A DNA stretch of 32,000 nt from Candidatus Heimdallarchaeota archaeon (GTDB lineage Archaea; Asgardarchaeota; Heimdallarchaeia; Heimdallarchaeales; Heimdallarchaeaceae). The notes under the pieces are model-generated. The model searched no databases and was not told where the DNA came from. It saw only the letters and a list, made by a program, of their open reading frames with translations. The translations under genes and the position numbers were made by a program. The stretch spans positions 40,934-72,933 of the forward strand of contig DAOVER010000013.1 of NCBI GenBank assembly GCA_030668875.1. The letters run 5' to 3'. This document shows, in pieces, positions 4,086-27,806 of the stretch (within the stretch, counting starts at the first letter, position 1; the number at the start of each line of letters is the position of its first letter).

Positions 4086-5219
4086 ATGAGTCAGATGGCA
4101 AAGGAAAAAATCATACGTGAACCAACAGAAATTCGAAATAGAGATGAAATTGAAGCATTAAAGCAAAATGATACTTATGATAAGCCTGAAAATTGGTTTC
4201 TCAGCCCTAGAATGGTTGAAACCTTTATTTTGGGATCCGATGAAGTACTAGAATATGAAGTAAAAGATAAGAAAAAGAAAATAAAGATAACAAGAAAATT
4301 TTACGGAGATAACGTTCTAGTACAACGAAGTATTATTACACTAGCTTCAGACAGAGGTTTGCTACTAATTGGTGAGCCTGGAACAGCTAAGAGCTGGTTA
4401 TCTGAACATCTAGCTGCAGGAATTTCGCATACTTCATTAAATGGAATTCAAGGAACTGCTGGAGTAACTGAAGATCAGATAAAATACTCATGGAATTATG
4501 CTATGTTACTGGCAGAAGGACCTTCATTGAACGCTTTAGTACCTAGCCCTGTTTATGTAGGGATGAAGGATGGGTTAATAACTAGATTTGAAGAAGTAAC
4601 AAGATGTCCTAGAGAGATCCAAGATACTTTGATTAGCATTCTTTCAGATAAGGTTCTCATTGTTCCCGAATTAGGTGAAAAAGGTGTCTTATTAGCAAGA
4701 AAGGGATTCAACATTATAGGAACCGCTAACACGAGAGATAAGGGAGTAAATGAGATGAGTTCAGCTCTTAAAAGACGTTTTAATTTTGAAACTGTACACC
4801 CAATAAAGAGCGTGAAAGAAGAGATTGAAGTTGTTCAAAATCAAACCGAGGGTATGCTTGAAAGTGATAATGTGAAGGTTGAATTCAAACATGACATTTA
4901 CGAATTGCTAGTGAAAACTTTTCACGAGCTTAGAAAAGGAGAAACGACAGATGGAGTGAAGGTTAACATACCTTCAACAGTTATGTCTACAGCTGAAGCA
5001 GTCTCTGTTGCGTATAATTCTGGTCTTTATGCACGATATTATGATGATGGGATTGTTAAACCAAAGCATTTAGCTATCAACATCAAAGGGGCTGTAATCA
5101 AAGATAACAATGAAGATATCCAGAAGCTGAATCAATATTGGGATCTTATTGTAAAACGAAGAGGATCTAATAACAAAGATTGGTCCAGTTACTATGACTC
5201 AAAGAAATACCTCATGTGA
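4086..5219 (+). CDS. yehL: MoxR-type AAA+ ATPase, YehL subfamily
   Basis: Walker A GEPGTAKS (4371-4394), Walker B variant RFEEVTRC, sensor TANTRDKGVNEMSSALKRRFNF, and the YehL-type N-terminus EIEALKQND...KPENWFLSPRMVETFILGS. Confidence 0.92.
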   Translation: MSQMAKEKIIREPTEIRNRDEIEALKQNDTYDKPENWFLSPRMVETFILGSDEVLEYEVKDKKKKIKITRKFYGDNVLVQRSIITLASDRGLLLIGEPGTAKSWLSEHLAAGISHTSLNGIQGTAGVTEDQIKYSWNYAMLLAEGPSLNALVPSPVYVGMKDGLITRFEEVTRCPREIQDTLISILSDKVLIVPELGEKGVLLARKGFNIIGTANTRDKGVNEMSSALKRRFNFETVHPIKSVKEEIEVVQNQTEGMLESDNVKVEFKHDIYELLVKTFHELRKGETTDGVKVNIPSTVMSTAEAVSVAYNSGLYARYYDDGIVKPKHLAINIKGAVIKDNNEDIQKLNQYWDLIVKRRGSNNKDWSSYYDSKKYLM

Positions 5220-5223
5220 TAAT

Positions 5224-7620
5224 ATGAGTGACCTTGACTCAAAGGAAACAATGGAAGGTATACAAAAAAAGATCCGAAAAATCGAAGACCAAACCATTGT
5301 TTACTTCCCTATTAAACATCATTCAATTGCATGTTCTCATTATCTAGAAAAGGCTATAGATTTCTATAAACCTGAAAAAATATTGATAGAACTTCCATTT
5401 GGAGCTGAAGTAAATTTACCTATTCTACAATCAGATCTAACAATACCACCTATTGCTTTACATTCATTTTACGTGGATAACCTAAATATCTTCGAATTAA
5501 ATGGAAAACTATCTCCTGATGAGAGCATCCCAGTAAGATTTGAAGGATACCATCCTATTGTAGCTTATTCACCTGAGTATCATGCTATACAACTAGCTAA
5601 AGAAAAGGAAATTGAGGTGGAATTTATTGATCTGCCTTTGTATAATATTATTCCTTATAGATTTAAGCAATCCTCTATATCTTTGTTCTATCCCGATGAA
5701 AGATATTATGAATTTAATGCATATGGAGCTCTCTTAGCAAAGAAATTACGGTGTAGGAATTTCCATGAGGTTTGGGAAACAATGTTCGAAACAAACCTTG
5801 ATATGAACTTTCAAGAATTCATGAGGAAACTTTATATATTCAGCTTAGTTGCGAGAAGTTCCCTTTCAGAAGAATTTCTAGAACAGGAGGGAGCTAATAT
5901 TCGTGAAGAATTTATGAAGTACAGAATAAAGAAAAGTTACCAAGATATACAAGAAAAAGATCGCAAAGGTAGTTTGTTAGTTGTAACTGGTGCCTTTCAT
6001 TCTGTTGTTTTGCCCTTTCTAAAAGGAAAAACTCAGAAAATAAGAAAAAAAGAGAACGTAATAATAACCGTTCCATACACCTATAATCAATTAGCTCTTT
6101 CAAGTGGATATCAATCAGGAAATCCAGCACCCAGATATTATGATAAATTATGGTCCAATTTACGAAATCCAGACATCAAGGATATTAAAATTGCAACATT
6201 AAATTTAGCTCTTGAAGTGAAAAATCAATCAAGAGAATATGGATCATTTGTTAGTGTTGCTGATAGTGTTCATGTTTTTAGAATGGCTCAAAACCTAGGC
6301 AGTTTCAGAGGAAAAGAAACCACTGGTTACTATGACTTAGTGGATGCTGTTAAATCAGTTTTTATCAAAGGTGATGAGAAAATATACGGACCCTCGATAT
6401 ATCGTGCTCTGGATGAAATACTCATAGGAGATGAGTACGGGACAATAGATCCTAATTTATCAACTACGCCTCTACTAGCTGATTTCCAATACAGAGCAAA
6501 GAAATTACGAATTAAGTTAGCTGCTGCAACTAAGTTGATGAGATTGAATTTGTACCAAACAAGTACTGCAAAACTAAAGTCACAATTCCTTCATCAGACA
6601 GTTTTTCTAAATTTAGGCTTTGGAGAAATGATAAAGGGACCAAATTTGATAAAGAAAGAGAATTTACACCTACTTGCGGAACAGTGGAATATTGCTTATA
6701 ATCGTGGTGTTGAAATTAAATTAATCAGTTCGATAAGTTTAGGTAATACTGTTAGAAACGCTTGTTTAACACTCCTTAGAGAAAAATTTGCTTCTACTGG
6801 AGAATCTGGCGTGGCAAGTGAACTTTTGTTAGTAGCTGCACAAATGGGTTTAGTTGAAGTGCTTGATGATTTAGGGAAACAGCTGATTGATATTATAGAT
6901 AAAGATCGTGATTTCAAAAGTCTCGTTCAAGCTCTCTACCAATTAGTTGCACTTTACAATTATCAAGAATCCTTGTTAACTGAAGGATTTAAACCTCTCC
7001 TAAGACTAATAGAACAAGCATATATCCGAGCAACTTTTCTAGTACCTTCAATTCTTCTGATTCAGGAAGATGAAGAGGAAACTGTAATTGAAAAAATCAA
7101 AGCCTTAACAAACTTTATTCTATCTTTTGATGATATTGAAGTTGATAAGAATCTCTTCATAGGGCAGATTAAGACAACTCTTACAAACGGAAAAGGAAAC
7201 CATGCAGTGAAAGGTGCATTAACCGGTGTTTTATATTCCTTACACGAAAAGAAAGTTGATGAATTGACACGGGAAATCAATGGTTATTTCGTAGGTGGAG
7301 CTTCTCTAGATGGAGGTAGTTTTGTTTATGGGTTGTTTATGATTTGTAGAGAAATATTACTACTGAAAGAAGATTTCTTTGATCGAATAGATAATTTAGT
7401 ATGTCAATTTTCTAATGAAGATTTTCTAACAATTTTACCATTATTTAGACGATCATTTTCTCTTTTTACACCAAAGGAAATTGATATTATCGGTTCCAAT
7501 GTTGCGCAGAAAAGAGAAATAGAAAAAATGGAAAAGATAGAGATAAGTGGAAATCTAGCTGAACTTCTGCATTTTGCTGACCAGTTAGCAGGAAGTAAAT
7601 TCGAGGAGATGGGCTTATGA
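5224..7620 (+). CDS. DUF5682 family (YehM-like) protein; N-terminal TIKI/TraB-like motif set followed by a long helical region
   Basis: PIKHHS, KILIELP, AYSPEYHA, IREEFM, VVTGAFHS and PYTYNQL..SSGYQSGNPAP. It lies between the YehL ATPase and the vWA gene. ATG 5224 is preferred to 5194, which overlaps yehL by 26 nt. Confidence 0.88.
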   Translation: MSDLDSKETMEGIQKKIRKIEDQTIVYFPIKHHSIACSHYLEKAIDFYKPEKILIELPFGAEVNLPILQSDLTIPPIALHSFYVDNLNIFELNGKLSPDESIPVRFEGYHPIVAYSPEYHAIQLAKEKEIEVEFIDLPLYNIIPYRFKQSSISLFYPDERYYEFNAYGALLAKKLRCRNFHEVWETMFETNLDMNFQEFMRKLYIFSLVARSSLSEEFLEQEGANIREEFMKYRIKKSYQDIQEKDRKGSLLVVTGAFHSVVLPFLKGKTQKIRKKENVIITVPYTYNQLALSSGYQSGNPAPRYYDKLWSNLRNPDIKDIKIATLNLALEVKNQSREYGSFVSVADSVHVFRMAQNLGSFRGKETTGYYDLVDAVKSVFIKGDEKIYGPSIYRALDEILIGDEYGTIDPNLSTTPLLADFQYRAKKLRIKLAAATKLMRLNLYQTSTAKLKSQFLHQTVFLNLGFGEMIKGPNLIKKENLHLLAEQWNIAYNRGVEIKLISSISLGNTVRNACLTLLREKFASTGESGVASELLLVAAQMGLVEVLDDLGKQLIDIIDKDRDFKSLVQALYQLVALYNYQESLLTEGFKPLLRLIEQAYIRATFLVPSILLIQEDEEETVIEKIKALTNFILSFDDIEVDKNLFIGQIKTTLTNGKGNHAVKGALTGVLYSLHEKKVDELTREINGYFVGGASLDGGSFVYGLFMICREILLLKEDFFDRIDNLVCQFSNEDFLTILPLFRRSFSLFTPKEIDIIGSNVAQKREIEKMEKIEISGNLAELLHFADQLAGSKFEEMGL

Positions 7621-8990
7621 AGAAAAGTGATGAGATTTTAGAACTATTAAATGATGATGTTAACAGATGGAGACTAATTTTAGGTAAATATAGCTATAAA
7701 CAACTTGAATTTCAAGAAGATAGACAAGATCCACTTTTTGGAAAACCTGACTTATTAACAAATCAAAAACGACAACAACAAGCTCCTGGTCAAGGTGATG
7801 GTCAACGTAAACAACAAATGAAATCTGGATCAAGTCAAGCTCCTGGTCAAGGAACAAAATCTAAAATCCCCCAATCAAGGCAAAGGCAAAAAACTTCTGG
7901 AAGATCACAGAGAGGAGGAACTGGGGGACAAGGTATGCCAGGAATTAACTCCTTACAACAGATGGATGAAACGTTATCATTCTTGTATCAACGCGAATAT
8001 GAAATGAGAGACGAGCCAGACACAGGACCTAAATCAGCTGGAAAAAGCTCAGGAGGTATTTCTATACCTCGTTGGATAAACAATGTAAAGGAACTATTTC
8101 CAGATGACGCAGTCAAAATACTGCAAAATGATGCTTTACATCGGTATAAACTCTCCCAACTTGTGATTGATGGAGATATGATCGATGAAATAGAACATGA
8201 TTTTGACTTACTAAAAGCAATTTTAGAATTCAAGAATCTAATGAAACCAGATGTTCTGGAAAAAGCTAAAAAAATAATTCGTAAAATTGCCCAACAGCTA
8301 GCAGATAAAATATTTTTGGAAGTTCAACCTGCTCTACTTGGAAAAATTCACAAAAATGAACATTCTCCACACAAGAGATTTAATTCAACTGATTGGAAGA
8401 GAACAATCGAGCATAATCTCAAGAATTACGATAAAGACATGAAAAAGTTGATCGTTGAACGAATTTTCTTCTGGGAAAGAAGAAATAAGATGAGATATCA
8501 TATAGTTCTTGTAATTGATCAGTCAGGGAGTATGACAAGTTCGGTGATATATTCTGCAGTTATGGCTGGAATATTCAACTCTCTTCCAAATGTAGATGTG
8601 TCCCTTGTAGTGTTTGATACTCGTGTTGTGGATTTATCAAATCAAGTAGGAGACATTGTTGAATTATTGTTAAAAGTACAACTAGGTGGTGGTACAGATA
8701 TAGCTTCAGCTGTTGAGTTTTCAGCTAAAAAAGTTGAAACTCCAGAGAGAACTTTATTCATATTACTTACTGATTTTTATGAAGGTGGAAACCGCCACAA
8801 ATTGATTGCGACAATTAAAGAATTACAAGCTTCTGGAACAAAAATGATCGGTTTAGCAGCTTTAGATTATGATTATGCTGCAAATTATGATCATGAATTA
8901 GCACGCAGAGTGGAAGAAGCTGGAATGAAAGTAGCTGTTCTTTCTCCAAAGGATTTAGCAGAATGGGTAGCTGAAAATATGGGGTCGTGA
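7617..8990 (+). CDS. vWA domain protein (YehP/CoxE-like partner of the MoxR ATPase)
   Basis: N-terminal RWRLILG; MIDAS DQSGS at 8517-8531, GGGTD and LLTDFYEG; ATGA overlap with the upstream stop. Confidence 0.92.
   Translation: MKKSDEILELLNDDVNRWRLILGKYSYKQLEFQEDRQDPLFGKPDLLTNQKRQQQAPGQGDGQRKQQMKSGSSQAPGQGTKSKIPQSRQRQKTSGRSQRGGTGGQGMPGINSLQQMDETLSFLYQREYEMRDEPDTGPKSAGKSSGGISIPRWINNVKELFPDDAVKILQNDALHRYKLSQLVIDGDMIDEIEHDFDLLKAILEFKNLMKPDVLEKAKKIIRKIAQQLADKIFLEVQPALLGKIHKNEHSPHKRFNSTDWKRTIEHNLKNYDKDMKKLIVERIFFWERRNKMRYHIVLVIDQSGSMTSSVIYSAVMAGIFNSLPNVDVSLVVFDTRVVDLSNQVGDIVELLLKVQLGGGTDIASAVEFSAKKVETPERTLFILLTDFYEGGNRHKLIATIKELQASGTKMIGLAALDYDYAANYDHELARRVEEAGMKVAVLSPKDLAEWVAENMGS
7779..7852 (+). 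repeat. 17-nt direct repeat (QAPGQG x2) in the low-complexity insert of the vWA gene
   Basis: caagctcctggtcaagg at 7779-7795 and at 7836-7852. Confidence 0.85.
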
Positions 8991-10273
8991 AAATGAGTGA
9001 AAATGAAATGATAACTGAAAACATGCAAGAAAACCTTCCAGAATTAGATTTGAAACAACTTGACGAAAAAGAAGAAGAAGTAGTTCCTGAAAGAGTAGAG
9101 CTGCCTGAAAATATTGAACCAGCTCTTGATAAAATAAGAGATTGGTTTAACAAACTTTTTCTTTACGGTGTTCAGAGGATATCCAAGGATAACATCGAAG
9201 AGTTACAAGCTCTATCTATCACAGCACACACAATTAAAGTTGCTAGATTAGAAAGAGATATTCAGTCGATGAGTAAAATACTTGAATTATATTTGAAAAA
9301 AGATCCAACATTTAATTTTACACGATTAACATCAACTCTTTCAAGAATTTCATTAACAGCAAAAACAATTCATGATTATAAAGAAGGAAAAGAGCTACCG
9401 ATTCAGCTGATTAAACTACTTACTGGAGCAAAAGAAGAGAAACAAGAATTTGATCTCTTAATTGCCCAAACTTTAGGCCTAAGTGGCTGGATGACTGATT
9501 CAGGATACGTGGGTGTAACTGCCTATTTGTATGACTTGACAAATAAAAGAATCATAGCAGCTACAAATGCTCGACCTTTAACATCCTTGCAATATATGAA
9601 TAATCGCAGAGGTAGATATGGTGGATATAGAAGATCAAGAAGCTCAAGATCTAATCTCAATTCTGAACTAAAGAATATAATGCTGATAAATGAATTGGAT
9701 ACTAATTCTAATATCAAAATAAAGGATTTTTCAGCTTCTGCCTTTCAGATTAGAAATGGAAAAATATCAAACGATTATCCTGCAAAGCTATCTCTTGGTA
9801 AATATCTTCGAGTTCATAGATACAAAGCAATTCCTTGGACTTCTACAAGGTTTCAGAATATTCGTTTTGATGACTGGAATGAAGTTCACACTAAAATTCA
9901 GGAAGTTGAATCTGAAGGAAAAACACTCTTTCCTCAACTTTTTGGGCTGTTCAAGGTGAAGGCTTTTTCCCCGATGGAACACGATGAAGTTGAAAAAATA
10001 TACAAATTCAAAGCTTATGATAAAAACTATGACAGCATGAATATAGTGATTCCGGATAAAGGTAGAAATCAATATGCAATTGAATCATTCAAAGATTTAT
10101 TCCAGAATAAGACTTTTCCTTCGATTATCTTTGGCCAAGCTAGAATAGGTTCTGATGGTAATCTGTCCTTATGGCCCATCAGTGGCATATGGAGCAAAGG
10201 TATGATGCTTTCTAATTATAGTATTGTTAGAAGTTGTGATTTCACTCTAAATAAAATGAGGTTCAAAAGGTGA
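8987..10273 (+). CDS. YehQ-like protein lacking the SWIM zinc fingers
   Basis: GTGA overlap with the vWA stop (alternative ATG at 8993). The helical bundle LFLYGVQR...ARLERDI, the motif LGLSGWMTDSGYVGVTAYLYD...NARP and the C-terminal YAIESF...IIFGQARIGSDGNLSLWP resemble the non-SWIM part of YehQ-type proteins (recalled similarity). No CxC...CxH motif is present. Confidence 0.7.
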   Translation: MKMSENEMITENMQENLPELDLKQLDEKEEEVVPERVELPENIEPALDKIRDWFNKLFLYGVQRISKDNIEELQALSITAHTIKVARLERDIQSMSKILELYLKKDPTFNFTRLTSTLSRISLTAKTIHDYKEGKELPIQLIKLLTGAKEEKQEFDLLIAQTLGLSGWMTDSGYVGVTAYLYDLTNKRIIAATNARPLTSLQYMNNRRGRYGGYRRSRSSRSNLNSELKNIMLINELDTNSNIKIKDFSASAFQIRNGKISNDYPAKLSLGKYLRVHRYKAIPWTSTRFQNIRFDDWNEVHTKIQEVESEGKTLFPQLFGLFKVKAFSPMEHDEVEKIYKFKAYDKNYDSMNIVIPDKGRNQYAIESFKDLFQNKTFPSIIFGQARIGSDGNLSLWPISGIWSKGMMLSNYSIVRSCDFTLNKMRFKR

Positions 10274-10277
10274 GAAA

Positions 10278-12605
10278 ATGGGATTAGTAATAACTGAATC
10301 TGAGTCGCTATCAATTGATAGATTTCTTGCTCCTCTAGAAGATATAATAATCAAAATAATACTCATAGGAGCAGATAGTTTAGAAGATATAGACATTAAA
10401 AAACTAGAGGAATTTCAGAAAGAAATAAAATTAATGAATATGAAAAACCTTGGAAATAAAGTAGCTACTTTACTAAAACTTCTAAAGAAAAAGGATAAAG
10501 TCTGGAATAACGAGGAGAAAGAGGATCTTACAATATTAACAAGTGTACTTCATCAGAGTATCTATCAAATCAAATCAAAGTTTACAAAGAACAAGGATCT
10601 TTCTAAAGACGAGAAAAAGAGTATAATAAAACCCATATCACAAAAAACTGTAAAAGAGCTGGAATTGATTCCTTTTGAGATTGAAGCAATTGGTAAGTCT
10701 AGAAGTGGAAGTGGTCAATACTCTGGTCAATACTACAAGATTAAAGGAATTAATACAGAGACAAATGAATGGATAACTGTTATAGATCACTCACAGATTT
10801 ATGCTTCAAGTGTCAACTCAGCATGGCAAAGTAGTCTGATAAATGACAGGGTGTACTTGAATAAACTTCTAGGAAATAGACTGAAAATATACAATCTTGT
10901 CCTTGAAAAGAACCAACTTTACAGGAAATCCCTAGATTCAAGAAAACAAGGTGATTTTACAGATTTAACTCAAGAAGAAAGAAAAAAATTACTTCTTGAA
11001 TTTAACAAGAAACAAGATAAAACAATTTACAGTATCAAAACTATCTCGAAATTAGAATATTCTCCTAAATACTCAAGTCCTTTCAGAATGCAAATTAAAG
11101 ATGAAGGAGGAACTAAGAAAGAGCAAGTAACCTTCTCCAATGATATTTTCTATCATATGTTCTTCAATGAAATGAAAAACATACAATTCATAGAGAAGGG
11201 AAATTATCGTATACTTTTCCATGAAGGAGACGCATATTTAACTAGTATGAAACTATCATTACCGCAGACAATCTGGGATTGGAAAAGAATAATCAAGCTT
11301 TGGATTAAGCAAGAAAATGAAACTGCCTTCCTCTTAAATCTCCAGTCATCTGAACAATTGAAAGATGATTTAGTTAAGAAAATAAATGAAAAAGCATCTC
11401 AAACAAAAATTTCGAATAAAGATATAGAAGAAGATCCCCTTTCTTACTTCATTCAAGAAAAATTATCAGATTATGTAAACTATCCATGGATTTCAACATT
11501 AGACTGGAAAAAACTAGCTCAACCCTATAACAATCTAGAATATCTGAAAAAAATGATAAAAATAGATAATTTCCTCCCATCAATTATGATAGCTTTGTCG
11601 AAAAATAAAAAACTAAGCTATAAATGTAGAGATGAAAAAATCAATCTTTGGATTCATGAATATCTAGAAAATATAATAACTCGAAAGAATCTTCGTAACT
11701 TTTCGAGACTTGTTAGTCAGAGGATTAGAAGTATCTCACATCCTAAAGAAGTTGTTCTTCTACTAGCTTTGCATCTAGAAGTTTATGGTTGTCTTACAAA
11801 TGAAGTAGCAAATTCACTCAAATATTCACCATGCTTTAACAGGAGTAAAAATTTGCGTGATTACATGGAAGCTAATCCCAAAGATAGATTCTGGTTGAGT
11901 TGTATCAGATTATTCTCAGAAGTAGAGATAATTGCTAATTGGGAAAAAGCTGTTAAATCCTGGATGAAAAATAAAAAAGAACACTTATCTTTATACCTTT
12001 TAGCTCAATCTAGATTACTCTCTAAAGATATACGGAAAATCATTTCGTCAAAAATACAAAAAACTCAACTTGAGAGTTGTTTAGATAAAGAGGACAATGT
12101 TCAGAAATTTATCATTAAAAAGATGTCTAAAATAGGTATTAAGTTACCATGGAAAACTAGTGTTAACTTGAAGTCTGATATTCAATCTGTAAAGAATGTA
12201 GATAAAACAAATCCCTCAATAACGGACCACTACAGTGGCTTATTGATCTATCTCACAAAAGATAAAATAGTTCTAGAAAAATATGAGAAACAGAAGAAAT
12301 ATTGTTGGGGTTTTGCTCTGATAAAGGAATTAATGAATGAAGCGAATATGGATAGATTATGCCGAATTACTTCTCAACTAGTTTCAAGTTCTCCAAAATC
12401 TTCATCATATCTATGGGCTCTATTCAAAGAACACTATGAAGATATACCAAAACCATTACTGCAAAGGATAAAGAACTCAAGAGCAGTAACTGATTGTAAA
12501 CAATTAAATGCTTATATCGAATCAGGAATAGAAGAAAGATTCTACTATTCTTGTTTAGCTTTGATAAATGAAAAAGAACTTGAACCAACGTTAAATGTGC
12601 ACTAA
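10278..12605 (+). CDS. Large hypothetical protein (775 aa), last gene of the operon; N-terminus resembles the preceding gene, C-terminus is helical
   Basis: Long ORF starting 4 nt after the upstream stop, Lys/Leu-rich, with no TM segment or catalytic motif recognised. Confidence 0.8.
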   Translation: MGLVITESESLSIDRFLAPLEDIIIKIILIGADSLEDIDIKKLEEFQKEIKLMNMKNLGNKVATLLKLLKKKDKVWNNEEKEDLTILTSVLHQSIYQIKSKFTKNKDLSKDEKKSIIKPISQKTVKELELIPFEIEAIGKSRSGSGQYSGQYYKIKGINTETNEWITVIDHSQIYASSVNSAWQSSLINDRVYLNKLLGNRLKIYNLVLEKNQLYRKSLDSRKQGDFTDLTQEERKKLLLEFNKKQDKTIYSIKTISKLEYSPKYSSPFRMQIKDEGGTKKEQVTFSNDIFYHMFFNEMKNIQFIEKGNYRILFHEGDAYLTSMKLSLPQTIWDWKRIIKLWIKQENETAFLLNLQSSEQLKDDLVKKINEKASQTKISNKDIEEDPLSYFIQEKLSDYVNYPWISTLDWKKLAQPYNNLEYLKKMIKIDNFLPSIMIALSKNKKLSYKCRDEKINLWIHEYLENIITRKNLRNFSRLVSQRIRSISHPKEVVLLLALHLEVYGCLTNEVANSLKYSPCFNRSKNLRDYMEANPKDRFWLSCIRLFSEVEIIANWEKAVKSWMKNKKEHLSLYLLAQSRLLSKDIRKIISSKIQKTQLESCLDKEDNVQKFIIKKMSKIGIKLPWKTSVNLKSDIQSVKNVDKTNPSITDHYSGLLIYLTKDKIVLEKYEKQKKYCWGFALIKELMNEANMDRLCRITSQLVSSSPKSSSYLWALFKEHYEDIPKPLLQRIKNSRAVTDCKQLNAYIESGIEERFYYSCLALINEKELEPTLNVH

Positions 12606-14762: not shown

Positions 14763-15809
14763 TTATCTATCATTATTTTGCTTTAAACCTCTTAACCATA
14801 GGAACAAATCGATTTTGCAATTGGGACATTTACTATTCTGCTCTAACCATGTTATGAGGTGTTTTTTATGTGAATATGTCTCACAACATGGTGTTTTAAC
14901 AACTACATTCTTTTCAGAAGGTTTTAAGTCAAGCAAACAGACTTTGCATGTTGGTCTATGAGCACCACATTGATCACATGTCTCCTCATTTGCTTCAAAA
15001 ACATTACCACACTGATAACAAAGGATTTCCTCAACTTCTATGTCATCAAAATCCCTCTGTAGAAGATTTGTATATATCTTCTCAAGAAGCTCAAGATATG
15101 TTGATACTTTTTCACTATTATTAAAACGAGCATTTACAAATTTACGATTCATTGTAAATTGCTTCAAATCTTTTTTCAAATTAATTAGCATATTGTTAAT
15201 TTCTTCTTTTTCAAGTAGACTCTCATAGAACGAGTGATGATTTGAATGAAAAATGTAGAACTCACTGGAACTAGGTAAATCAACATCATTACCAGTATCA
15301 ATCTTCTTTCTAGTTTTCCGCTTTATACTGAAAGCTAATGGATAATCTGCTTTCATCATCGTATCTATAGCTATTTCATTTACTGAAAGAACTTTTATTG
15401 TTGTTCTATGAAAGAAATTGTATTTATGCTTCTCAGGGAAATAAAAAATAATTCTAGGAACTTGATCAAGCTGTTTTTCTATAATATCTCCACCAAGTTC
15501 TCTAATGTTAAATGCAATTTTAGTGAGTATCTTTTCTTTATCAGTAACCAGATCCTTAACATGGTCGATATAGACTTCTGTTAATTTGGAAGGCTTACGA
15601 GTTTCTCTCTTCAATTTAACATACCAATAAATACGCAAAAAAATGGGGATAATTATGATACATCCTACAACATAGAAAAGGAAATAATAGAACCTGAAGT
15701 TATTGCCAACTAAATCATATGAAATGAAAAATCCACCAGCGATGACAGCAATTATAAAAATTGCTGATAGAAGGCGTTTTAGATAATATTTATTCATCAT
15801 AGAACACAT
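14763..15809 (-). CDS. Membrane-anchored double-zinc-ribbon + RING-type protein (putative E3 ligase-like)
   Basis: Two N-terminal TM helices; C-terminal CYQC..CDQC zinc ribbon followed by CKVC-x15-PCC-x4-HKKH-x3-W-x6-CPNC (14817-15020). Confidence 0.85.
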   Translation of the reverse strand: MCSMMNKYYLKRLLSAIFIIAVIAGGFFISYDLVGNNFRFYYFLFYVVGCIIIIPIFLRIYWYVKLKRETRKPSKLTEVYIDHVKDLVTDKEKILTKIAFNIRELGGDIIEKQLDQVPRIIFYFPEKHKYNFFHRTTIKVLSVNEIAIDTMMKADYPLAFSIKRKTRKKIDTGNDVDLPSSSEFYIFHSNHHSFYESLLEKEEINNMLINLKKDLKQFTMNRKFVNARFNNSEKVSTYLELLEKIYTNLLQRDFDDIEVEEILCYQCGNVFEANEETCDQCGAHRPTCKVCLLDLKPSEKNVVVKTPCCETYSHKKHLITWLEQNSKCPNCKIDLFLWLRGLKQNNDR

Positions 15810-16607: not shown

Positions 16608-17816
16608 ATGATGCTCGTTAGACGGACTGAACGGATAAAAGTGAAACCTAGTTTCACGCTTATGCAGTTAGCAAGACAGAGCAAAAACGTGTATAATTAT
16701 GGAAATTATATCATCAAAAGACAACTGAAAAATAGTAAATATATGACCTCAGAGTATGAATTAGTAAGTATAATCCGTTATCATCCTTGCTATACGAAAT
16801 TTATCGCTCACTCAGCACAACAGACGATAAAATTTTTAGTAAAGAACTGGAAAGCGTATTTCAGAGCGATAAAAGAGTACAAGAAGCACCCGCAAAAATT
16901 CCTCTCTCCACCCCATGCGCCCAAATATAAGAAAAAACGAGGGTTCCACACCATCTACTTCACAGCTAACCAAGCAAAAGTGAAAGAAGAGGGGTGGTTG
17001 CATTTTCCCAAAAAAGTAGGGCTGAAAGTGAAAACAAGGCTGGAGAAAGGAAGGAAGATCAATCACGTCCGTTTACTCCCTAAAGGGACGTGTTTTATCT
17101 TAGAGATAATTTATGAGCGAGAAATAAAACAAGAGCCATCGAAACACTCCCTCCGAGCAAAGAATATCTTAGCCATAGATTTAGGGGTGAATAATCTCTT
17201 GACTTGTGTGAGTAACTGCGTTTCCCCTTTCCTCATCAATGGGAGGAAACTAAAAGCTAGCAACCAATGGTATAACAAAGAGTGTGCCCGTCTCCAATCT
17301 ATATACGATTTACAAAGATTAGAAAATTACGGGCAGGGGATGAAGAAGGTTATAGACAAACGCTATCAACGGGTGGAAGATTATCTTCATAAAGCTTCAA
17401 GGATCGTCATCGACCAATGTTTGCAACATCGCATAGGTACCATTGTTATTGGTTATAACAAGAAATGGAAACAGAAAAGTAAAATGGGGAAGAAAAGCAA
17501 TCAGATTTTCGTCTCTATTCCTTTCTTAAGCTTGGTACGCAAACTTCAATATAAAGCTGAAGAGGTAGGGATAAAAGTCATCTTGACGGAGGAAGATTTT
17601 ACATCCAAATGTTCATTTTTAGATAACGAGGTAATCAAAAAACATCCCAAGTATCTAGGAAGAAGGTTGAAAAGAGGTTTATTCAGAAGCAAAACCGGTA
17701 TCCTGCTTAACGCTGATTGCAACTCAGCTGGTAATATCGGTCGTAAAGTATTCCCGCTGGTCTTCACCTACGGGACAGTGGATGCCGTGAGTCATCCTCA
17801 CTGTTGGACTGTTTAG
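16608..17816 (+). CDS. tnpB: RNA-guided endonuclease TnpB
   Basis: RuvC-I AIDLGVNN, rearranged RuvC-II (IVIGYN..WKQ with the Glu in TEEDFTSK) and RuvC-III LNADCNSAGNI; N-terminal SKNVYNYGNYIIK; degenerate Zn finger (KCSFLD). Confidence 0.93.
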   Translation: MMLVRRTERIKVKPSFTLMQLARQSKNVYNYGNYIIKRQLKNSKYMTSEYELVSIIRYHPCYTKFIAHSAQQTIKFLVKNWKAYFRAIKEYKKHPQKFLSPPHAPKYKKKRGFHTIYFTANQAKVKEEGWLHFPKKVGLKVKTRLEKGRKINHVRLLPKGTCFILEIIYEREIKQEPSKHSLRAKNILAIDLGVNNLLTCVSNCVSPFLINGRKLKASNQWYNKECARLQSIYDLQRLENYGQGMKKVIDKRYQRVEDYLHKASRIVIDQCLQHRIGTIVIGYNKKWKQKSKMGKKSNQIFVSIPFLSLVRKLQYKAEEVGIKVILTEEDFTSKCSFLDNEVIKKHPKYLGRRLKRGLFRSKTGILLNADCNSAGNIGRKVFPLVFTYGTVDAVSHPHCWTV

Positions 17817-20961: not shown

Positions 20962-23900
20962 ATGTCAAAAAACTTTCCTTTCGATTTATGGATTTCAACT
21001 GGAAGTGATTCCGGGATTAGTTTTGCAACAGTAGGTAGATTAGCTAGAGATTCAAGTATGATGCAAGGAATCTTACTTTCACTCCAATCATTAATGACTA
21101 CAGAAGTTGAGGTTTCAAATTCACAGTTTATGACAGGCGAGAATGAGTTTGTAAAATTTGGTACGTTTACAATAGCTGAAGAAGCTGACACCGTTGTTGT
21201 TCAATATGTTGTCAAATCAGATGAAGCGAACAAACTTTCAAAAGAAAATGAAATGTTAGTTCAGGGGCTAGCACTTTCATTCTGCAAATTCATCGTCCTA
21301 ACACCAAATTTTCATAGGAATCTAAATACAGGAAAAATGATATCTTTAGATTACGTATCGAAAGCATATCTCAAAGCTTGTACAATTGCTAAACAAAAAG
21401 TTGCAGTAAGTAAGAATAATGAAGCATTAATTGATTTGATAAATGAAAAACTCAAATTAATAGAAGACAAACCTGAGGATTTCCCCACTGTTTTACAGTT
21501 GAAAGACATTGAACAATGGATTGGAGAGGAAGAAACATCCTGGGATAAAGGGTCAATTTCTCCTTTTAAGAGACAATTATTAGTACAGATGGTAGCACAA
21601 GACATTCTTAATCAAATCATCTTAGAAGATCCGTTTGTCATATTAGAATATGAAACACCGAGATATACAATAGAAGAAATAAGGAATACTATTGAATTAT
21701 ATTTGCAGAAGAAACAATATAAACCAGAGGAATTAATAGATCTCTACTTAGCGAAGAACCTACAAGAAAAAGTTAATGTTAACTTAAAGAAACTGAATAT
21801 AAGTGAGATACATACTGCAAAGACCTTTATAGCGAATAACCTCGCAAAGGAGATTATTTACAATATAGCAAAAGAAAACCCATTATTAACTCTTACAGAT
21901 TTTCGTAATATTCCACTTTATACTGCAATACAAAATCAAATTACAACTTTAACAGATGTTCCAGATCCTGGAAGTATAATCTGTAATGGTCTTATGGAAG
22001 ATGTTACTCCCTTAGTTTTACAAGGAGCAAGACTGTTCTTTAAACAACTTATTATCCCCTTTGAGGGTAGAAAATTACCAACAAGTATATGGAATGTCAT
22101 AGTTGATTTCACTTTTTCAATATTAGATGAAAAAAGGCTTACTCAAAATTCGAAAACAAAGAAAATAGGTAAAACTGCTATAGATTTTAAACGTGGAATT
22201 ATTAAGGAAAGATTATCCAGGCTAACAAATGTCCATCCTGAATGGATAGAACAACTTATAGACAAATTTGATAATATGGGAGTTGGAAAACAGCTGCAAA
22301 TATCCAACATCGAGGAATCTGTTCTGTTTGCTAGTGCATTAGAAAAAGCAATTATCACCACATTAGAGAAAATGGTGAAAGATCAGCTGTTTAATTCCAA
22401 TCTTGGTGATATATTTACTTATATGATCAATGCATTCAGAGATATTGCACCAAAGACAGTTCTGGTCAACGTTCTATCAAAGGTTATAGTAGATGTCAAG
22501 TACAGAGGTTATGAAACAGCGAAACAAATGAGTTTAACTGCAAAAGATTTAATAGGTTCAGCAATTGATGAAGGAGAAATTAAAGCATATGTTAATTCAG
22601 TATCTGTACAAAACAAAAGGTCATTTTTCAAAGGGTCACATCTACGTTTTGATGGCAGAACAATCTCATCAAATGAGCTTCTTCAGAAACCAGGAGTGAC
22701 ACTGAGTTTAGGGAACAAGATATTCCCATTACGAGATGTTGAAAAAGATGCTGAGTTTCTCACTACTTGTTTCACTAATTCAAAAGTTCTTAAGAAGGCA
22801 TATGCTAAAGCAGTTCTACGAGGGATGGTCTCCTCTTATTTGCAAAAAATGTTCTCATTTGAAGGAGAAGTAATAAATCTAATAGATACTTTGATAACTG
22901 TTTTCAATAGAGAAATGGTGGGTAAACTAACTCCAGCTCATCGAATACCAGACATTCAAAATGGTTTTCCATCCTTCCCACAGATTCGAGACATACCTCA
23001 AAAGTTCGCAGGAAAACACTTCCATGAGAGATGTCAAGACAGTTGGAATGATTATGCTCCAAAAATCCAAAAAACTATTCAGGATCTTTTAGCAGGATTT
23101 TCTAACTTGAGAAAGAATGATTTGAGTTACAAGAAGAAAGCAATGCGTTTATACAATAGAGCAATCAAAGAGCTGAAGGGTATAAGAAAGAACCTACTCA
23201 AGAATTGGAACCCATTAAATGATCAAATGACAAAGGTTGTTGAGAAATGGTCCAAAGATGTTAGTATAGATCTTAGTGGTCATCTTAATGAAGTTAGTAA
23301 GAATGTTACCAATTGGACTGGTGATATATTCAAATTACAAAAATTAGATTACGGTAAATTCACGATATCACTCAAAAGAGCACAAAAAGAGATAATCAAC
23401 ACGATAAAAGACATTCATCCAAAGGAGTTTAGAGATTTACCCAAAAACTTCATGGAAATAGCATTGTCAATTTTATTGTACAGAAGAATACCTGATTATG
23501 TCATAGATGAGTCTTATAATCAAATGATTAGCGGTGAAAAGCGTGTAGCAGAAGCAGTACTTCGAGCATGGGGTAGAAGTAAATCCAGAAGTGAGTTCGA
23601 GAACAACCTTTATCTTAATATGCGAGCTCTAGGAAACACTTTCACGAAAATCATCAACACCTATGGAAGACTAACAAGCACGTTTTTCATTAAAAATGAT
23701 ATTGAGTTGTCAAGTGATAAGAAAGGCCACTTCATTACATTGGGATCAATACCTAAAGAAATCTACGAAACAAAAACCAAGGTATTATCAATGCTCCAAT
23801 TTCCCAATGTTGAAGCAGTAAGCAGTAGTAAAAACTGGGAAATAAGACTGTATCTAGAACCCGAATATAGAAGATCTATGGATGAGAATAGGGATCGGTT

Positions 23901-24111
23901 GATTGTAATGAGCGATATCATTAGATTTGTAGCACGAATGAAGTTTGAAGAAAATACTGGTCCTGTAATCGAAGGAATAAAAGCTGTAATTCCATATCTA
24001 ATAGAAGATGGAGACACCAATATTATAGAACTATCTGAAACGTTGAAGGAAGCGCTGTTCATGCTATCGGAATATCCAACACAAGTAATTGAAGAGAAAG
24101 TAAAGAAATAG
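20962..24111 (+). CDS. 1049-aa hypothetical protein: N-terminal longin-like domain + long alpha-helical region
   Basis: Intact long ORF. The first ~145 aa follow the bb-a-bbb-aa longin order with helix DSSMMQGILLSLQSLMTTEV. No TM segment or NTPase motif was seen. Confidence 0.8.
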   Translation: MSKNFPFDLWISTGSDSGISFATVGRLARDSSMMQGILLSLQSLMTTEVEVSNSQFMTGENEFVKFGTFTIAEEADTVVVQYVVKSDEANKLSKENEMLVQGLALSFCKFIVLTPNFHRNLNTGKMISLDYVSKAYLKACTIAKQKVAVSKNNEALIDLINEKLKLIEDKPEDFPTVLQLKDIEQWIGEEETSWDKGSISPFKRQLLVQMVAQDILNQIILEDPFVILEYETPRYTIEEIRNTIELYLQKKQYKPEELIDLYLAKNLQEKVNVNLKKLNISEIHTAKTFIANNLAKEIIYNIAKENPLLTLTDFRNIPLYTAIQNQITTLTDVPDPGSIICNGLMEDVTPLVLQGARLFFKQLIIPFEGRKLPTSIWNVIVDFTFSILDEKRLTQNSKTKKIGKTAIDFKRGIIKERLSRLTNVHPEWIEQLIDKFDNMGVGKQLQISNIEESVLFASALEKAIITTLEKMVKDQLFNSNLGDIFTYMINAFRDIAPKTVLVNVLSKVIVDVKYRGYETAKQMSLTAKDLIGSAIDEGEIKAYVNSVSVQNKRSFFKGSHLRFDGRTISSNELLQKPGVTLSLGNKIFPLRDVEKDAEFLTTCFTNSKVLKKAYAKAVLRGMVSSYLQKMFSFEGEVINLIDTLITVFNREMVGKLTPAHRIPDIQNGFPSFPQIRDIPQKFAGKHFHERCQDSWNDYAPKIQKTIQDLLAGFSNLRKNDLSYKKKAMRLYNRAIKELKGIRKNLLKNWNPLNDQMTKVVEKWSKDVSIDLSGHLNEVSKNVTNWTGDIFKLQKLDYGKFTISLKRAQKEIINTIKDIHPKEFRDLPKNFMEIALSILLYRRIPDYVIDESYNQMISGEKRVAEAVLRAWGRSKSRSEFENNLYLNMRALGNTFTKIINTYGRLTSTFFIKNDIELSSDKKGHFITLGSIPKEIYETKTKVLSMLQFPNVEAVSSSKNWEIRLYLEPEYRRSMDENRDRLIVMSDIIRFVARMKFEENTGPVIEGIKAVIPYLIEDGDTNIIELSETLKEALFMLSEYPTQVIEEKVKK

Positions 24112-24130
24112 AAAGGAGTAAATCTCCTTT
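24112..24130. terminator. Hairpin between convergent genes (candidate bidirectional terminator)
   Basis: AAAGGAG-taaat-CTCCTTT perfect 7-bp stem, followed by agttttt on the + strand and ctatttcttt on the - strand. Confidence 0.6.
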
Positions 24131-24135
24131 AGTTT

Positions 24136-25758
24136 TTAGGATAAGAAACTTCTTGATCTTGATAATAATGCATCTGAATTTTTCTTTGAATATTTCTTTC
24201 TTTGTTCTAATAGAACAAGTCCAGAATTTAAAGATGACAGATCTCCTGTCTGAATCATTTCATTATTCTCTGATTGGATTTCTGCTTGCAAGTTTTGTTT
24301 GCTTGCTAAAAGATTCTCAAGCGGATGTTTCAAGAAATCAAAGGATTCTCTAGCGATGCAATCAAAACCGATTAAACCATTCGTCCCATGTAGAGCAAGA
24401 GATCGTGGTTTTTTCATATTATTAGCTACTTCGAATGGAGGAATAACGTTGAAAATGAACCCACTTTTATCCTTATACTTACATATTGCAACTGGTACAT
24501 TGATAGTTACAAGTTGTTCATTATCTGAAATACCAAGCAAATCTGAGGATAAAGAATAGGCAGAAATCATCACATAATTGCTTTTAGCTCTTTTAATAAG
24601 ATTATTACGATTATTCTTGAATTTATCAAAGATGTTATTAGCTTTTTGAATTTCCTTTTCTTGTTCTTCAAGCTTTTTACGTTTTTCATCTTGAATATCA
24701 ACTATGTATAGGTTAAGATCTTCTTTGACTGTATTTAGTCTATCAGAAACATTTCTTTTGTCAACATCTTCTTGATGACCTATATCTTCATATTCAGTTT
24801 TTCTATATTCTATCTCAGAAACTGCACTATTGAGTCCAACACCAAAGGATTGAGTTTCATCTTGCACTTCTCTAATTCTGCTTATAACTGTGTCAAAATC
24901 GTTTTCTGAATTGACTTTATCTAGACTCGTCAACAATTGATTATAAGATTCTTGTAGGGAAGAAATATCTTTTTTCAACTGATTCCAACGTTTACTATCC
25001 TTAACAGAAACAATTTGTTCTCGCTTTTCTTTGTTCGATTCAGACACTATTGAATCATGTTGGCTTATTTCCTCTTCTTTGAATTGCTGAATTTTCTTAG
25101 CATTTTCTTGCTTCTGATTTTCTATTTGTTGATTGTATCTTTGCTCGATCTTATCCTTATCATGTTTTTTCTTTTCAACTACAGACTGTAGATGTTTTTC
25201 AACTTCATCTAGAAGAACATTAAGTTTAGTTTCTAATTCATGATCAGTAATTGCATATTTGCCAGCTGAAGCAATCTCTCTTTTTATGTCATCTCTGGAA
25301 ACCAAAGGAGATATTTTTTTGTAAGAATTGTTACGAGTTGAAACATGCTGAGAAACTAGTTTAGCAGTTCCCTCAATTCCTTTCTTAACTAAAACACCAC
25401 TAATTTCTAAATGAAAAATATTCATAGAAACTAGCGTTTCCTCTATGGCTCTATAGTGAGATTCTAAAGAGGGGTATTGCTCTTCTAGAACAGCCTTAAT
25501 CTCTGAAAGCTCTGGAATTTTACTGACAAGTAATTTGTTCTTTTCAAGTTGTAAGGTATTAATGACAATATAGTTACCGTCACTTATTCTTACAGCAAAG
25601 AATGGAACGTAACAAGTGTAAATTCCCTCTAAAATCTCTTTTTTCTTTATATTATCAAGTGCATACCCTACTAAAGAAGAATATTCAATTTGCTTAGCTT
25701 CATCTCCTGAGAATTCAGAAGTAATTAATTTAAGAAATATTTCGTTTGCCATTTTCAT
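24136..25758 (-). CDS. Hypothetical coiled-coil protein (540 aa) with globular N- and C-terminal halves
   Basis: Central E/K/Q-rich heptad region (~aa 170-390) flanked by CYVPFFAV and INVPVAI...IPPFEV; AGGAG SD; starts 5 nt after the ABC ATPase stop. Confidence 0.82.
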   Translation of the reverse strand: MKMANEIFLKLITSEFSGDEAKQIEYSSLVGYALDNIKKKEILEGIYTCYVPFFAVRISDGNYIVINTLQLEKNKLLVSKIPELSEIKAVLEEQYPSLESHYRAIEETLVSMNIFHLEISGVLVKKGIEGTAKLVSQHVSTRNNSYKKISPLVSRDDIKREIASAGKYAITDHELETKLNVLLDEVEKHLQSVVEKKKHDKDKIEQRYNQQIENQKQENAKKIQQFKEEEISQHDSIVSESNKEKREQIVSVKDSKRWNQLKKDISSLQESYNQLLTSLDKVNSENDFDTVISRIREVQDETQSFGVGLNSAVSEIEYRKTEYEDIGHQEDVDKRNVSDRLNTVKEDLNLYIVDIQDEKRKKLEEQEKEIQKANNIFDKFKNNRNNLIKRAKSNYVMISAYSLSSDLLGISDNEQLVTINVPVAICKYKDKSGFIFNVIPPFEVANNMKKPRSLALHGTNGLIGFDCIARESFDFLKHPLENLLASKQNLQAEIQSENNEMIQTGDLSSLNSGLVLLEQRKKYSKKNSDALLSRSRSFLS

Positions 25759-25763
25759 TTCTC

Positions 25764-26528
25764 CTAATAAGTAATCTGACCATCATGAATCTTAACCATT
25801 CTATCAGCAAATTTTCTCAGTTCTATGTTGTGGGTTGCTACTAGAACAGCAGCACCTTCACGAGACATAAGCTTCATTTGACGCATGATTTGATTTCCCG
25901 ATTCACTGTCAAGATTCCCTGTTGGTTCATCTGCAAAAACGATTCTTGGTTCTTTTATTAGAGCTCTGCATATAGCGACTCTTTGCTGCTCACCACCGCT
26001 CATCTGGTCAGGATAAGCGTATTCTTTATCAAGCAGCCCAACTTTTCGAATTAGCTTAATTGATTTTTCTCTTAATTCAAGAGAAGGGATATTCGAGGGA
26101 TAGAGACTTGATTCAACATTCTCAACAGCTTTTAGTGTTGGTATTAGCTCCCAAGCTTGGAACACAAAACCAATGTTATGACGACGATAATTTGTCAGTT
26201 GTTTCTCATCCCACTCTGTTATGTCAACAAGATGTTTGTCTTTCCCTTTTTTCTTTGCATCACTCTCATTCTTGTTGGTGTGTGTGAAACCCTCACCAGC
26301 TCTTGAAGTATTAAAAAAAATCTTTCCATTTGTAGGTTTATCTAAACCAGAAAGAACGTTGAGTAGAGTTGTTTTTCCGCTTCCTGAAGGGCCAATTACC
26401 ATTAGTATTTCTCCAGGATTAATTTCCAAACTAACCTTATCAAGTGCTCTTACAACTTCAGATCTACCTCGTCGATATATCTTAGTTACTTTATCCATTT
26501 TTAATATTACATCTGACATCATACTCAC
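25764..26528 (-). CDS. ABC transporter ATP-binding protein (LolD/MacB/FtsE-like)
   Basis: [40 protein letters not shown] and VATHN. Confidence 0.95.
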
Positions 26529-27721
26529 CTAGCCTTAAACAATATCACTGTAGATACTCTGACGAATGATAAACTTGATAATAACAGTCCAGGTATAGTT
26601 ACCACTACCACTATAACAAATGATATCAGTAATGTAACCCAAGTTAACAGATAATTACTGAATGCCATTTGTTGTATCCAGAAATAGATTACTATTGCAA
26701 GGATTCCAATAATATAACCTACGAAACTTATCGTAAGACTTTCACCCATTAGATTAATTCGAATTTCTTTTTTCTTGTAACCCATTGCTCTCAGTACAGC
26801 TACTTCTCTTCTTCTGAACCACACAATTATGAAGTTGTACAATATAGTGAGCAAAATACCACCTACTATACCAAAAATAAAAATAAGAAAGTCTGTTGCT
26901 CTCTGTTTCTTTACTGATTCTGCAACAGTATCAGGGGGTATCCAACTTCCATATGAACCACCGTTTACTAATGTGAACAGATCTTCTGAAGGTTCGTCAT
27001 AACGAATCATATTCTCAAAAATCTCATCGCTGAATGGATTATAAAGACTACCAACTACCAATACAGAAATACTCTCACAATAAACTGGAGTTGTATCCGC
27101 GAAATTATCATGAAGATAATCAAAATCATCATCCGAAATAAACATTCTTAGTTTATCTGGAGCATTAATTGTATCATTGATTTCACCAACGACATTCAAC
27201 TCAAAAGTTGTTTCCGCCGCATTAATAAAGTTAATTTGTTCACCAATATGTAGTGTAGCGCTAACATTACTAGAGAATGTACCTAAATCAGCTTTAATTG
27301 TTGACCCTGTTGATATTACCACGTCATTTAGCTTTGAGATATATCGCCCGTTTTGAATCAAAGAAGGTTTAGCAGCTTTGAACATCCAGCTACTCCCAGG
27401 ATCAACTCCAAAAACCCTAATATAATCACCAAGATCAAAGAAACGAAACATTGCAACTGATTCGATTCCCGCCATATCTTCAATTAGATTTTTTAGAGCT
27501 TCGGCTTGACTAGCATTGACCTTTACACTTTCAGTATTTTGTGCTTTTATGTAAAATCCTTTCTGTTCAAGCAAATCATCTGTTGCATATAGATTGAATG
27601 TACCTGCAAAGAAAGTGACGAAAGCGGAGAGAAATGCAAATATTACAACAAAAGTTATCCAACGCTTCTTAGCTCGAAAAGCAAAGCGTACCGAATTTTT
27701 TATTAATCGCCACATAGCCAT
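26525..27721 (-). CDS. ABC transporter permease, FtsX/MacB-like
   Basis: N-terminal TM, large extracytoplasmic domain, then FtsX-type RRREVAVLRAMGY....I...LMGES with 3 TMs. ATG 27721 has an AGGTG SD; 4-nt overlap with the ATPase gene. Confidence 0.9.
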   Translation of the reverse strand: MAMWRLIKNSVRFAFRAKKRWITFVVIFAFLSAFVTFFAGTFNLYATDDLLEQKGFYIKAQNTESVKVNASQAEALKNLIEDMAGIESVAMFRFFDLGDYIRVFGVDPGSSWMFKAAKPSLIQNGRYISKLNDVVISTGSTIKADLGTFSSNVSATLHIGEQINFINAAETTFELNVVGEINDTINAPDKLRMFISDDDFDYLHDNFADTTPVYCESISVLVVGSLYNPFSDEIFENMIRYDEPSEDLFTLVNGGSYGSWIPPDTVAESVKKQRATDFLIFIFGIVGGILLTILYNFIIVWFRRREVAVLRAMGYKKKEIRINLMGESLTISFVGYIIGILAIVIYFWIQQMAFSNYLLTWVTLLISFVIVVVVTIPGLLLSSLSFVRVSTVILFKAR

Positions 27722-27806
27722 AACTAACACCTTGTCTAGTATTTACATCTTTAACTAACAAGCACTCACTTTTAAACTCATCTAAATTGCTCAAAGCAAA
27801 AATTAT

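Follow-up and report, generated by a model that had tools for sequence, protein, structure and literature searches.

A large longin-headed protein family of Heimdallarchaeia and other Asgard archaea and its possible role as a scaffold

A gene in a 32,000-nucleotide stretch of a Candidatus Heimdallarchaeota contig (hereafter the window) encodes a protein of 1049 amino acids, which a preliminary description had taken for a longin-like head on a long helical body and for a candidate eukaryotic-signature regulator of trafficking or of GTPases. The locus raises the question of what this protein is and how far its head and body point to such a role.

The reading frame (P0001; window positions 20962–24111, + strand) starts with ATG, is free of stops over its 1049 aa and contains the N-terminal motifs quoted in the preliminary description, while the strand opposite is closed to reading. 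Full-length homologues (n = 24) are 47–91% identical, and those named come from Heimdallarchaeaceae or Heimdallarchaeota. In two unsaturated pairs dN/dS is 0.063 and 0.089, with lowest or near-lowest values in the longin head, which also has the lowest pN of the protein. On the strength of these homologues and ratios the ORF is a real gene, beyond chance. It is single-copy in its own genome; an apparent paralogue at C91:75107 was rejected as a chaperonin, and matches to C99 and to many 'phylum' genomes at profile positions 600–790 were rejected as coiled-coil noise. The gene stands alone between opposite-strand neighbours, with a DUF211 gene upstream and genes for a 540-aa coiled protein and an ABC transporter downstream. 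A hairpin located between the converging stop codons (24112–24130) is a consensus match only, with a terminator-like score on both strands. Because of the opposite-strand neighbours and this hairpin, the gene is probably transcribed alone. A sigma-70 promoter scan remained at chance level.

Several other features of the window were recorded. An operon at 4086–12605 (+) comprises MoxR AAA+, DUF5682 and VWA-CoxE genes followed by two ORFs with no Pfam match. A 348-aa protein encoded at 14763–15809 (−), with two TM-like segments at its N-terminus and a RING finger at its C-terminus (zf-RING_2, E 9e-6), is a candidate membrane E3 ligase. A solo TnpB/Cas12f-like gene lies at 16608–17816 (+), and the region 24136–27730 (−) holds an FtsX-type permease, an ABC ATPase and a 540-aa coiled-coil protein without a family match.

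Sequence searches of Pfam and PDB with the whole protein and with family profiles returned nothing specific. An AlphaFold2 model was obtained from a 59-sequence alignment (mean pLDDT 85.3, pTM 0.69). DSSP analysis of this model places strands at residues 7–15, 20–25, 57–60, 64–73 and 76–86 and helices at 31–48, 94–112, 117–123 and 129–146, and the beta-beta-alpha-beta-beta-beta-alpha-alpha order described earlier for the N-terminal region is thus borne out for aa 7–146 (20980–21399, +). The order of the elements, the five-stranded antiparallel sheet and a C-terminal helix replacing the N-terminal helix of roadblock domains are, in the model, those of a longin. The best match of the head in the structural search is synbindin/TRAPPC4 (Z 10.3, 121 aligned residues, rmsd 2.9), followed by Sec22b (9.6), AP-3 sigma (8.8), VAMP7 (8.7), Trs23 and Ykt6 (both 8.5), sedlin (8.4) and Tca17 (7.3). 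Roadblock chains cover the head only up to aa ~120, at Z ~7.4, whereas longins cover the whole domain including its C-terminal helix; sensor domains are also present among the fold matches. Foldseek retrieved mostly longin and roadblock chains at high probability, none of them at E<=0.001. Identity to known longins is only 7–10% (4–10% for the TRAPP longin subunits), and longin Pfam models matched none of 79 heads at E<=0.1. In the Atlas, the head resembles a small Asgard longin cluster (TM 0.69 over 127 residues), and a cluster with 34% Fuz_longin_1, reached at a feature score of 0.87, serves as no more than a lead. It is the agreement of many independent longins, and not any one Z, on which we assign aa 7–146, as modelled, to the longin fold; the structural scores single out no particular longin subfamily. 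The longin-like head proposed earlier is therefore upheld by the fold model and by structural matches at Z 8.4–10.3, and neither Pfam nor PDB gave a match to a known non-trafficking family.

The best-conserved block of the protein comprises aa 1–50. Conservation within the head gathers on beta2-alpha1, where G25 and E48 are invariant in all 79 aligned heads and D30 is found in 65. We take this face to be one that participates in dimer and GTPase contacts in TRAPP and Mon1-Ccz1; conservation of G25 and D30 could equally well be explained as structural. A homodimer of the longin head, co-folded from two copies, reached a median of 0.30 against a mark of 0.42, and we count this neither for nor against pairing of the head with itself.

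Following the head, the model is mostly helical, as described before for some 800 residues, with the exception of an insert of five strands. A helical repeat, with a conserved proline ahead of a short hydrophobic helix, spans aa 201–269 (21562–21768, +), and comparison with this copy reveals a second one at aa 283–349 (21808–22008, +; hhalign prob 94.8, E 4.9e-8). At the cut-off used, most members have two copies of this repeat of ~80 aa; the second paralogue of the genus f5 and the Atabeyarchaeia row have one. A further helical region of the model (aa 350–536; 22009–22569, +) leads to the beta-rich insert (aa 541–594; 22582–22743, +), whose five predicted strands lie at aa 541–589 and which is present in the protein's own order (f1–f4) and shortened or absent elsewhere. 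Next comes a Lys-rich, four-helix up-down bundle (aa ~620–770; 22819–23271, +), which is net basic in 88% of members and matches generic bundles only (Z up to 10.8, which for bundles still lies within noise). Apolipoprotein matches at aa ~610–760 look like amphipathic-helix composition and were rejected.

The solenoid suggested earlier is not supported by the model, which contains only the two repeat copies and no regular solenoid. The likeness to tethers, coats and DENN proteins is likewise not supported, as the chain has one longin and no cDENN alpha/beta core, long solenoid or beta-propeller. Large subunits of CATCHR, HOPS or TRAPP complexes do not appear among the top structural matches listed, in searches that did not take aa 150–536 separately. 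The protein lacks a TM segment (max KD19 1.39), a P-loop and CxxC, and it has no SNARE Pfam match. Some polar residues of the body are conserved (H284, E452 and E880); no residue is invariant over the full family and no catalytic or metal motif was found. In total, 85% of the protein gives no hint of function.

The C-terminal module (aa ~800–1032; 23359–24057, +) consists of helices, two beta-hairpins around a short helix, and closing helices. The model, with strands at 917–931 and 950–964 and helices at 938–944 and 967–1032, agrees with the small alpha/beta C-terminal domain described previously. Folded alone, the C-terminal 241 residues reached pLDDT 89.1 and were compared with 48,161 chains, which gave a best Z of 5.2 and no Foldseek match (E>=0.18). 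We considered this module as a Bet3/V4R-like or adaptin platform and rejected the idea, as no such row is present in this search. The result for the modelled module is compatible both with a new fold and with a distant known fold. The module is the cleanest marker of the family and, like the helical repeat, lacks a solved relative.

The gene is present in 28 of the 29 other genomes of its own taxonomic family, intact in nearly all, and iterated profiles recover it in 78 of the 82 genomes of its class. The first profile, searched against 1.84 billion representatives, gave 46 matches, and all named ones are Asgard MAGs. Distant members were first picked up by profiles built without them. Profile comparison connects the Atabeyarchaeia members over aa 263–1034 (prob 97.5) and those of family f7 (prob 94.5); the Freyarchaeia/Jordarchaeia members are weak by hhalign alone (E 7e-4) and have collinear head, repeat and C-terminal matches. 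The C-terminal profile detects the family in 88 of 399 Asgard genomes, namely 75/82 of the own class, 3/3 Atabeyarchaeia, 4/5 f7 and 6/6 Freyarchaeia/Jordarchaeia. In the other 303, many of them incomplete and with few candidates scored per genome, it was not detected, which is how absence is to be read here since the later profiles included distant members; judging from group sizes, the two largest groups without matches are probably Loki- and Thorarchaeia. The pattern from the repeat profile differs only slightly: f13 and f6 drop out and a single marginal match is gained. In a quick tree the f1–f4 members form one supported clade, as vertical descent would give, and deeper joins lie on long branches. 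NCBI labels of 'Thorarchaeota', 'Promethearchaeota' and 'Odinarchaeota' on some homologues were left out as evidence of range, because the single genus f5 carries several of them and the labelled homologues group with f5. A 951-aa neighbour of P0055 was rejected as a relative, being unrelated. The distribution thus covers the class Heimdallarchaeia together with Atabeyarchaeia, f7 and Jordarchaeia/Freyarchaeia.

The family behaves as modular. In all six genomes of the Freyarchaeia-type group f14 the gene is divided into two overlapping ORFs (~620 and 491 aa), the split falling near the site of the beta insert of the own order, and Freyarchaeum has an additional fused copy of ~1110–1130 aa. The second f5 paralogue is either fused (~850 aa) or split (254+597 aa), and f7 carries two diverged paralogues in tandem, a few kb apart. 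In P0027 (L100:6001-11427), a protein of 1808 aa, the body (profile 254–1000) is tandemly duplicated and the longin head is single.

Ras-family matches number 38 in the own genome. Neither near the own locus nor in the f1–f3 neighbourhoods was a GTPase, roadblock or V4R gene seen. All seven f5 loci examined have a small GTPase two genes upstream, with an opposite-strand gene in between, and genes for a thioredoxin-2xV4R protein lie one or two genes from the f13 copies and from the second f5 copies. The GTPase and V4R links are leads only, as each is found in one or two lineages and is non-operonic, and GTPase genes make up ~1% of the genome. In the Asgard archaeon MK-D1, part of the report by Tran et al. 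(PMC10933270) describes GTPase genes as rarely sharing operons with their regulators.

Other genes were observed around these loci. The thioredoxin + 2xV4R protein is common to Jordarchaeia and Heimdallarchaeia (L071:10550-11995, L086:3284-4876 and, in the own genome, C91:77064-78626). A 344-aa gene between the f7 paralogues (L079:8724-9755 and six other f7 loci) has no Pfam match, a weakly V4R-like C-terminal Cys motif (prob 8.6%) and a homologue in the own genome (C15:11179-12372). Across f2–f4, a gene of ~200 aa without Pfam match lies near the family gene (L031:11491-12129, with relatives in L034, L035, L038, L040, L041, L044 and L045), and in Atabeyarchaeia a dTDP-glucose dehydratase-like gene (L066:3300-5432) appears by eye to hold an intein-like insertion.

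Which role would fit such a protein? Our leading reading, held tentatively, is a soluble, non-catalytic scaffold that docks by its longin head, probably in small-GTPase signalling. We favour a non-catalytic scaffold because longin and roadblock domains are described, in part of PMC10933270, as dimeric platforms that often bind small GTPases, and because conservation gathers on beta2-alpha1. The head would be the docking site, pairing with another longin or roadblock domain (that of a second copy of the protein, of a paralogue or of some small partner), and/or might contact a small GTPase as the longin platforms of TRAPP, Mon1-Ccz1 and the SRP receptor do. The helical repeats, basic four-helix bundle and C-terminal module might then serve as an arm by which this platform is brought to a second partner or surface. 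The scaffold reading is supported by the full-domain longin fold, the strong constraint on the head, the lack of TM segment, P-loop and CxxC, the number of Ras-family matches and the modular forms and, weakly, by the small GTPase upstream in f5 and the thioredoxin-2xV4R genes beside the f13 and second f5 copies. It is weakened by the neighbourhoods of the own locus and f1–f3, by the restriction of these neighbour links to one or two lineages each, by the low identity to longins with no Foldseek match at E 0.001, by the large share of the protein that carries no functional hint, and by the occurrence of longins in non-GTPase roles, such as SNAREs, adaptins and Asgard fusions to two-component domains (as covered in part of 10.1101/2020.10.19.343400). 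The partner, the GTPase link and a membrane role are each something that we only infer, and the trafficking role suggested earlier is unproven.

In the reading that we rank second, as possible rather than likely, the longin is an interaction or sensing module independent of GTPases (PAS/GAF-like, or autoinhibitory as in longin SNAREs) and would control a body with some other function, for example as a structural, nucleic-acid-associated or division-related scaffold. The sensor domains among the fold matches and an own locus without context link are in line with it, as are a body that P0027 retains in duplicate without the head and that has an ORF of its own in the split forms, and a basic bundle for which nucleic acid is a possible ligand alongside lipid. 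However, the top-scoring matches, which also cover the head most completely, are longins of trafficking complexes; conservation peaks in the head, and the protein has no HTH, kinase or output domain. A large subunit of a TRAPP- or tether-like complex with V4R/Bet3-like proteins, acting as Rab GEF or tether with its basic bundle on the membrane, is unlikely. TRAPP longins are indeed the nearest folds, the bundle is net basic, and both the thioredoxin-2xV4R genes beside the f13 and second f5 copies and the 344-aa f7 gene would suit such a complex. But of the 10 genomes checked only 3 show V4R linkage (in the other seven, the own genome included, the V4R genes are not linked), the V4R likeness of the f7 gene is weak, no TRAPP, tether or coat subunit is among the listed structural matches of the body, and a TM or lipid-anchor motif is absent.

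Much less probable is an enzyme of unrecognised fold concealed in the body, for which the large size, single copy, unmatched C-terminal module and the conserved H284, E452 and E880 might speak, but which finds no family-wide invariant residue or catalytic or metal motif. Ranked last, and already largely refuted, is a longin GAP of FLCN/NPRL2/SMCR8 type or a DENN-type GEF. FLCN-like proteins do exist in Heimdallarchaeia, and GATOR1 and FLCN chains occur among the weak Foldseek rows. GAP longins, however, carry a conserved arginine finger in the beta4-beta5 turn, and here no arginine is present at aa 70–80, with only 18 of 79 heads having any there. The GP motif before beta2, a mark of the GAP longins FLCN, NPRL2, SMCR8 and C9orf72 (PMC12290439), is found in none of the 79 heads, the 1049-aa protein having G18-I19. 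The alpha/beta DENN core is also absent after the longin, since aa 153–536 is helical in the confident model, and there is no DENN Pfam match.

An extension of the scaffold reading, which we consider improbable, is an ancient Asgard scaffold of Heimdallarchaeia, Jordarchaeia/Freyarchaeia and Atabeyarchaeia whose head would regulate a small GTPase and whose basic bundle and new-fold C-terminal module would anchor it to a membrane or to V4R/Bet3-like partners, as a forerunner or analogue of the large eukaryotic longin GEF/tether complexes. Should the protein act on a GTPase at a membrane as its regulator, it would inform the origin of eukaryotic trafficking regulators; otherwise it adds another case to the domain-shuffled longin fusions of Asgard archaea. 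As a eukaryotic-signature protein it qualifies by its longin head, but not by the remainder. Asgard longins described so far are mostly small, patchy in distribution and confined to single lineages, whereas this protein is large, usually single-copy and vertically inherited within its own order. It is so widely kept in a class often placed nearest to eukaryotes, yet is invisible to Pfam, and it offers a concrete candidate for learning what Asgard longins bind.

The expansion of longins in Asgard archaea and their lineage-specific fusions are already known, as part of 10.1101/2020.10.19.343400 describes. With the longins and roadblocks of that expansion (Liu et al.; Tran et al.; the Loki roadblock-longin 8yqg) the head shares the domain class and the small-residue pattern of helix 1. 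The fusions reported in the portions covered of 10.1101/2020.10.19.343400 and PMC10933270 are to GTPase, DENN, NPRL2-C, TRAPPC3 or two-component domains, and the ~1000-aa architecture is not among them. The earlier designation as an undescribed large longin fusion holds within the Pfam, PDB and literature searched, a scope outside which lie supplements such as the structure-inferred ESP list of PMC12962969. Among eukaryotic systems, the TRAPP longin subunits (TRAPPC4/synbindin/Trs23, TRAPPC2/sedlin and Tca17) share the fold over aa 7–146, but are stand-alone proteins of ~140–220 aa, while here the longin heads a 900-aa body and no Bet3/V4R gene is linked in the own genome. Longin R-SNAREs (Sec22b, VAMP7, Ykt6) and the AP sigma/mu longins (Z 8.5–9.6) likewise place an N-terminal longin before other modules; here, however, the body is unrelated, with no SNARE coil with TM or lipid anchor and no mu-homology domain. 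FLCN-FNIP, GATOR1 NPRL2/3, SMCR8-C9orf72, Mon1-Ccz1, Fuzzy-Inturned and DENN proteins also have an N-terminal longin on a large protein, but GP motif, arginine finger and DENN core are missing here, and the tri-longin GEFs (Mon1-Ccz1, HPS1-4, Fuz-Intu) have three longins per chain against one in our model. The paralogue pairs found in one lineage are reminiscent of the heterodimers that these GAP and GEF complexes form.
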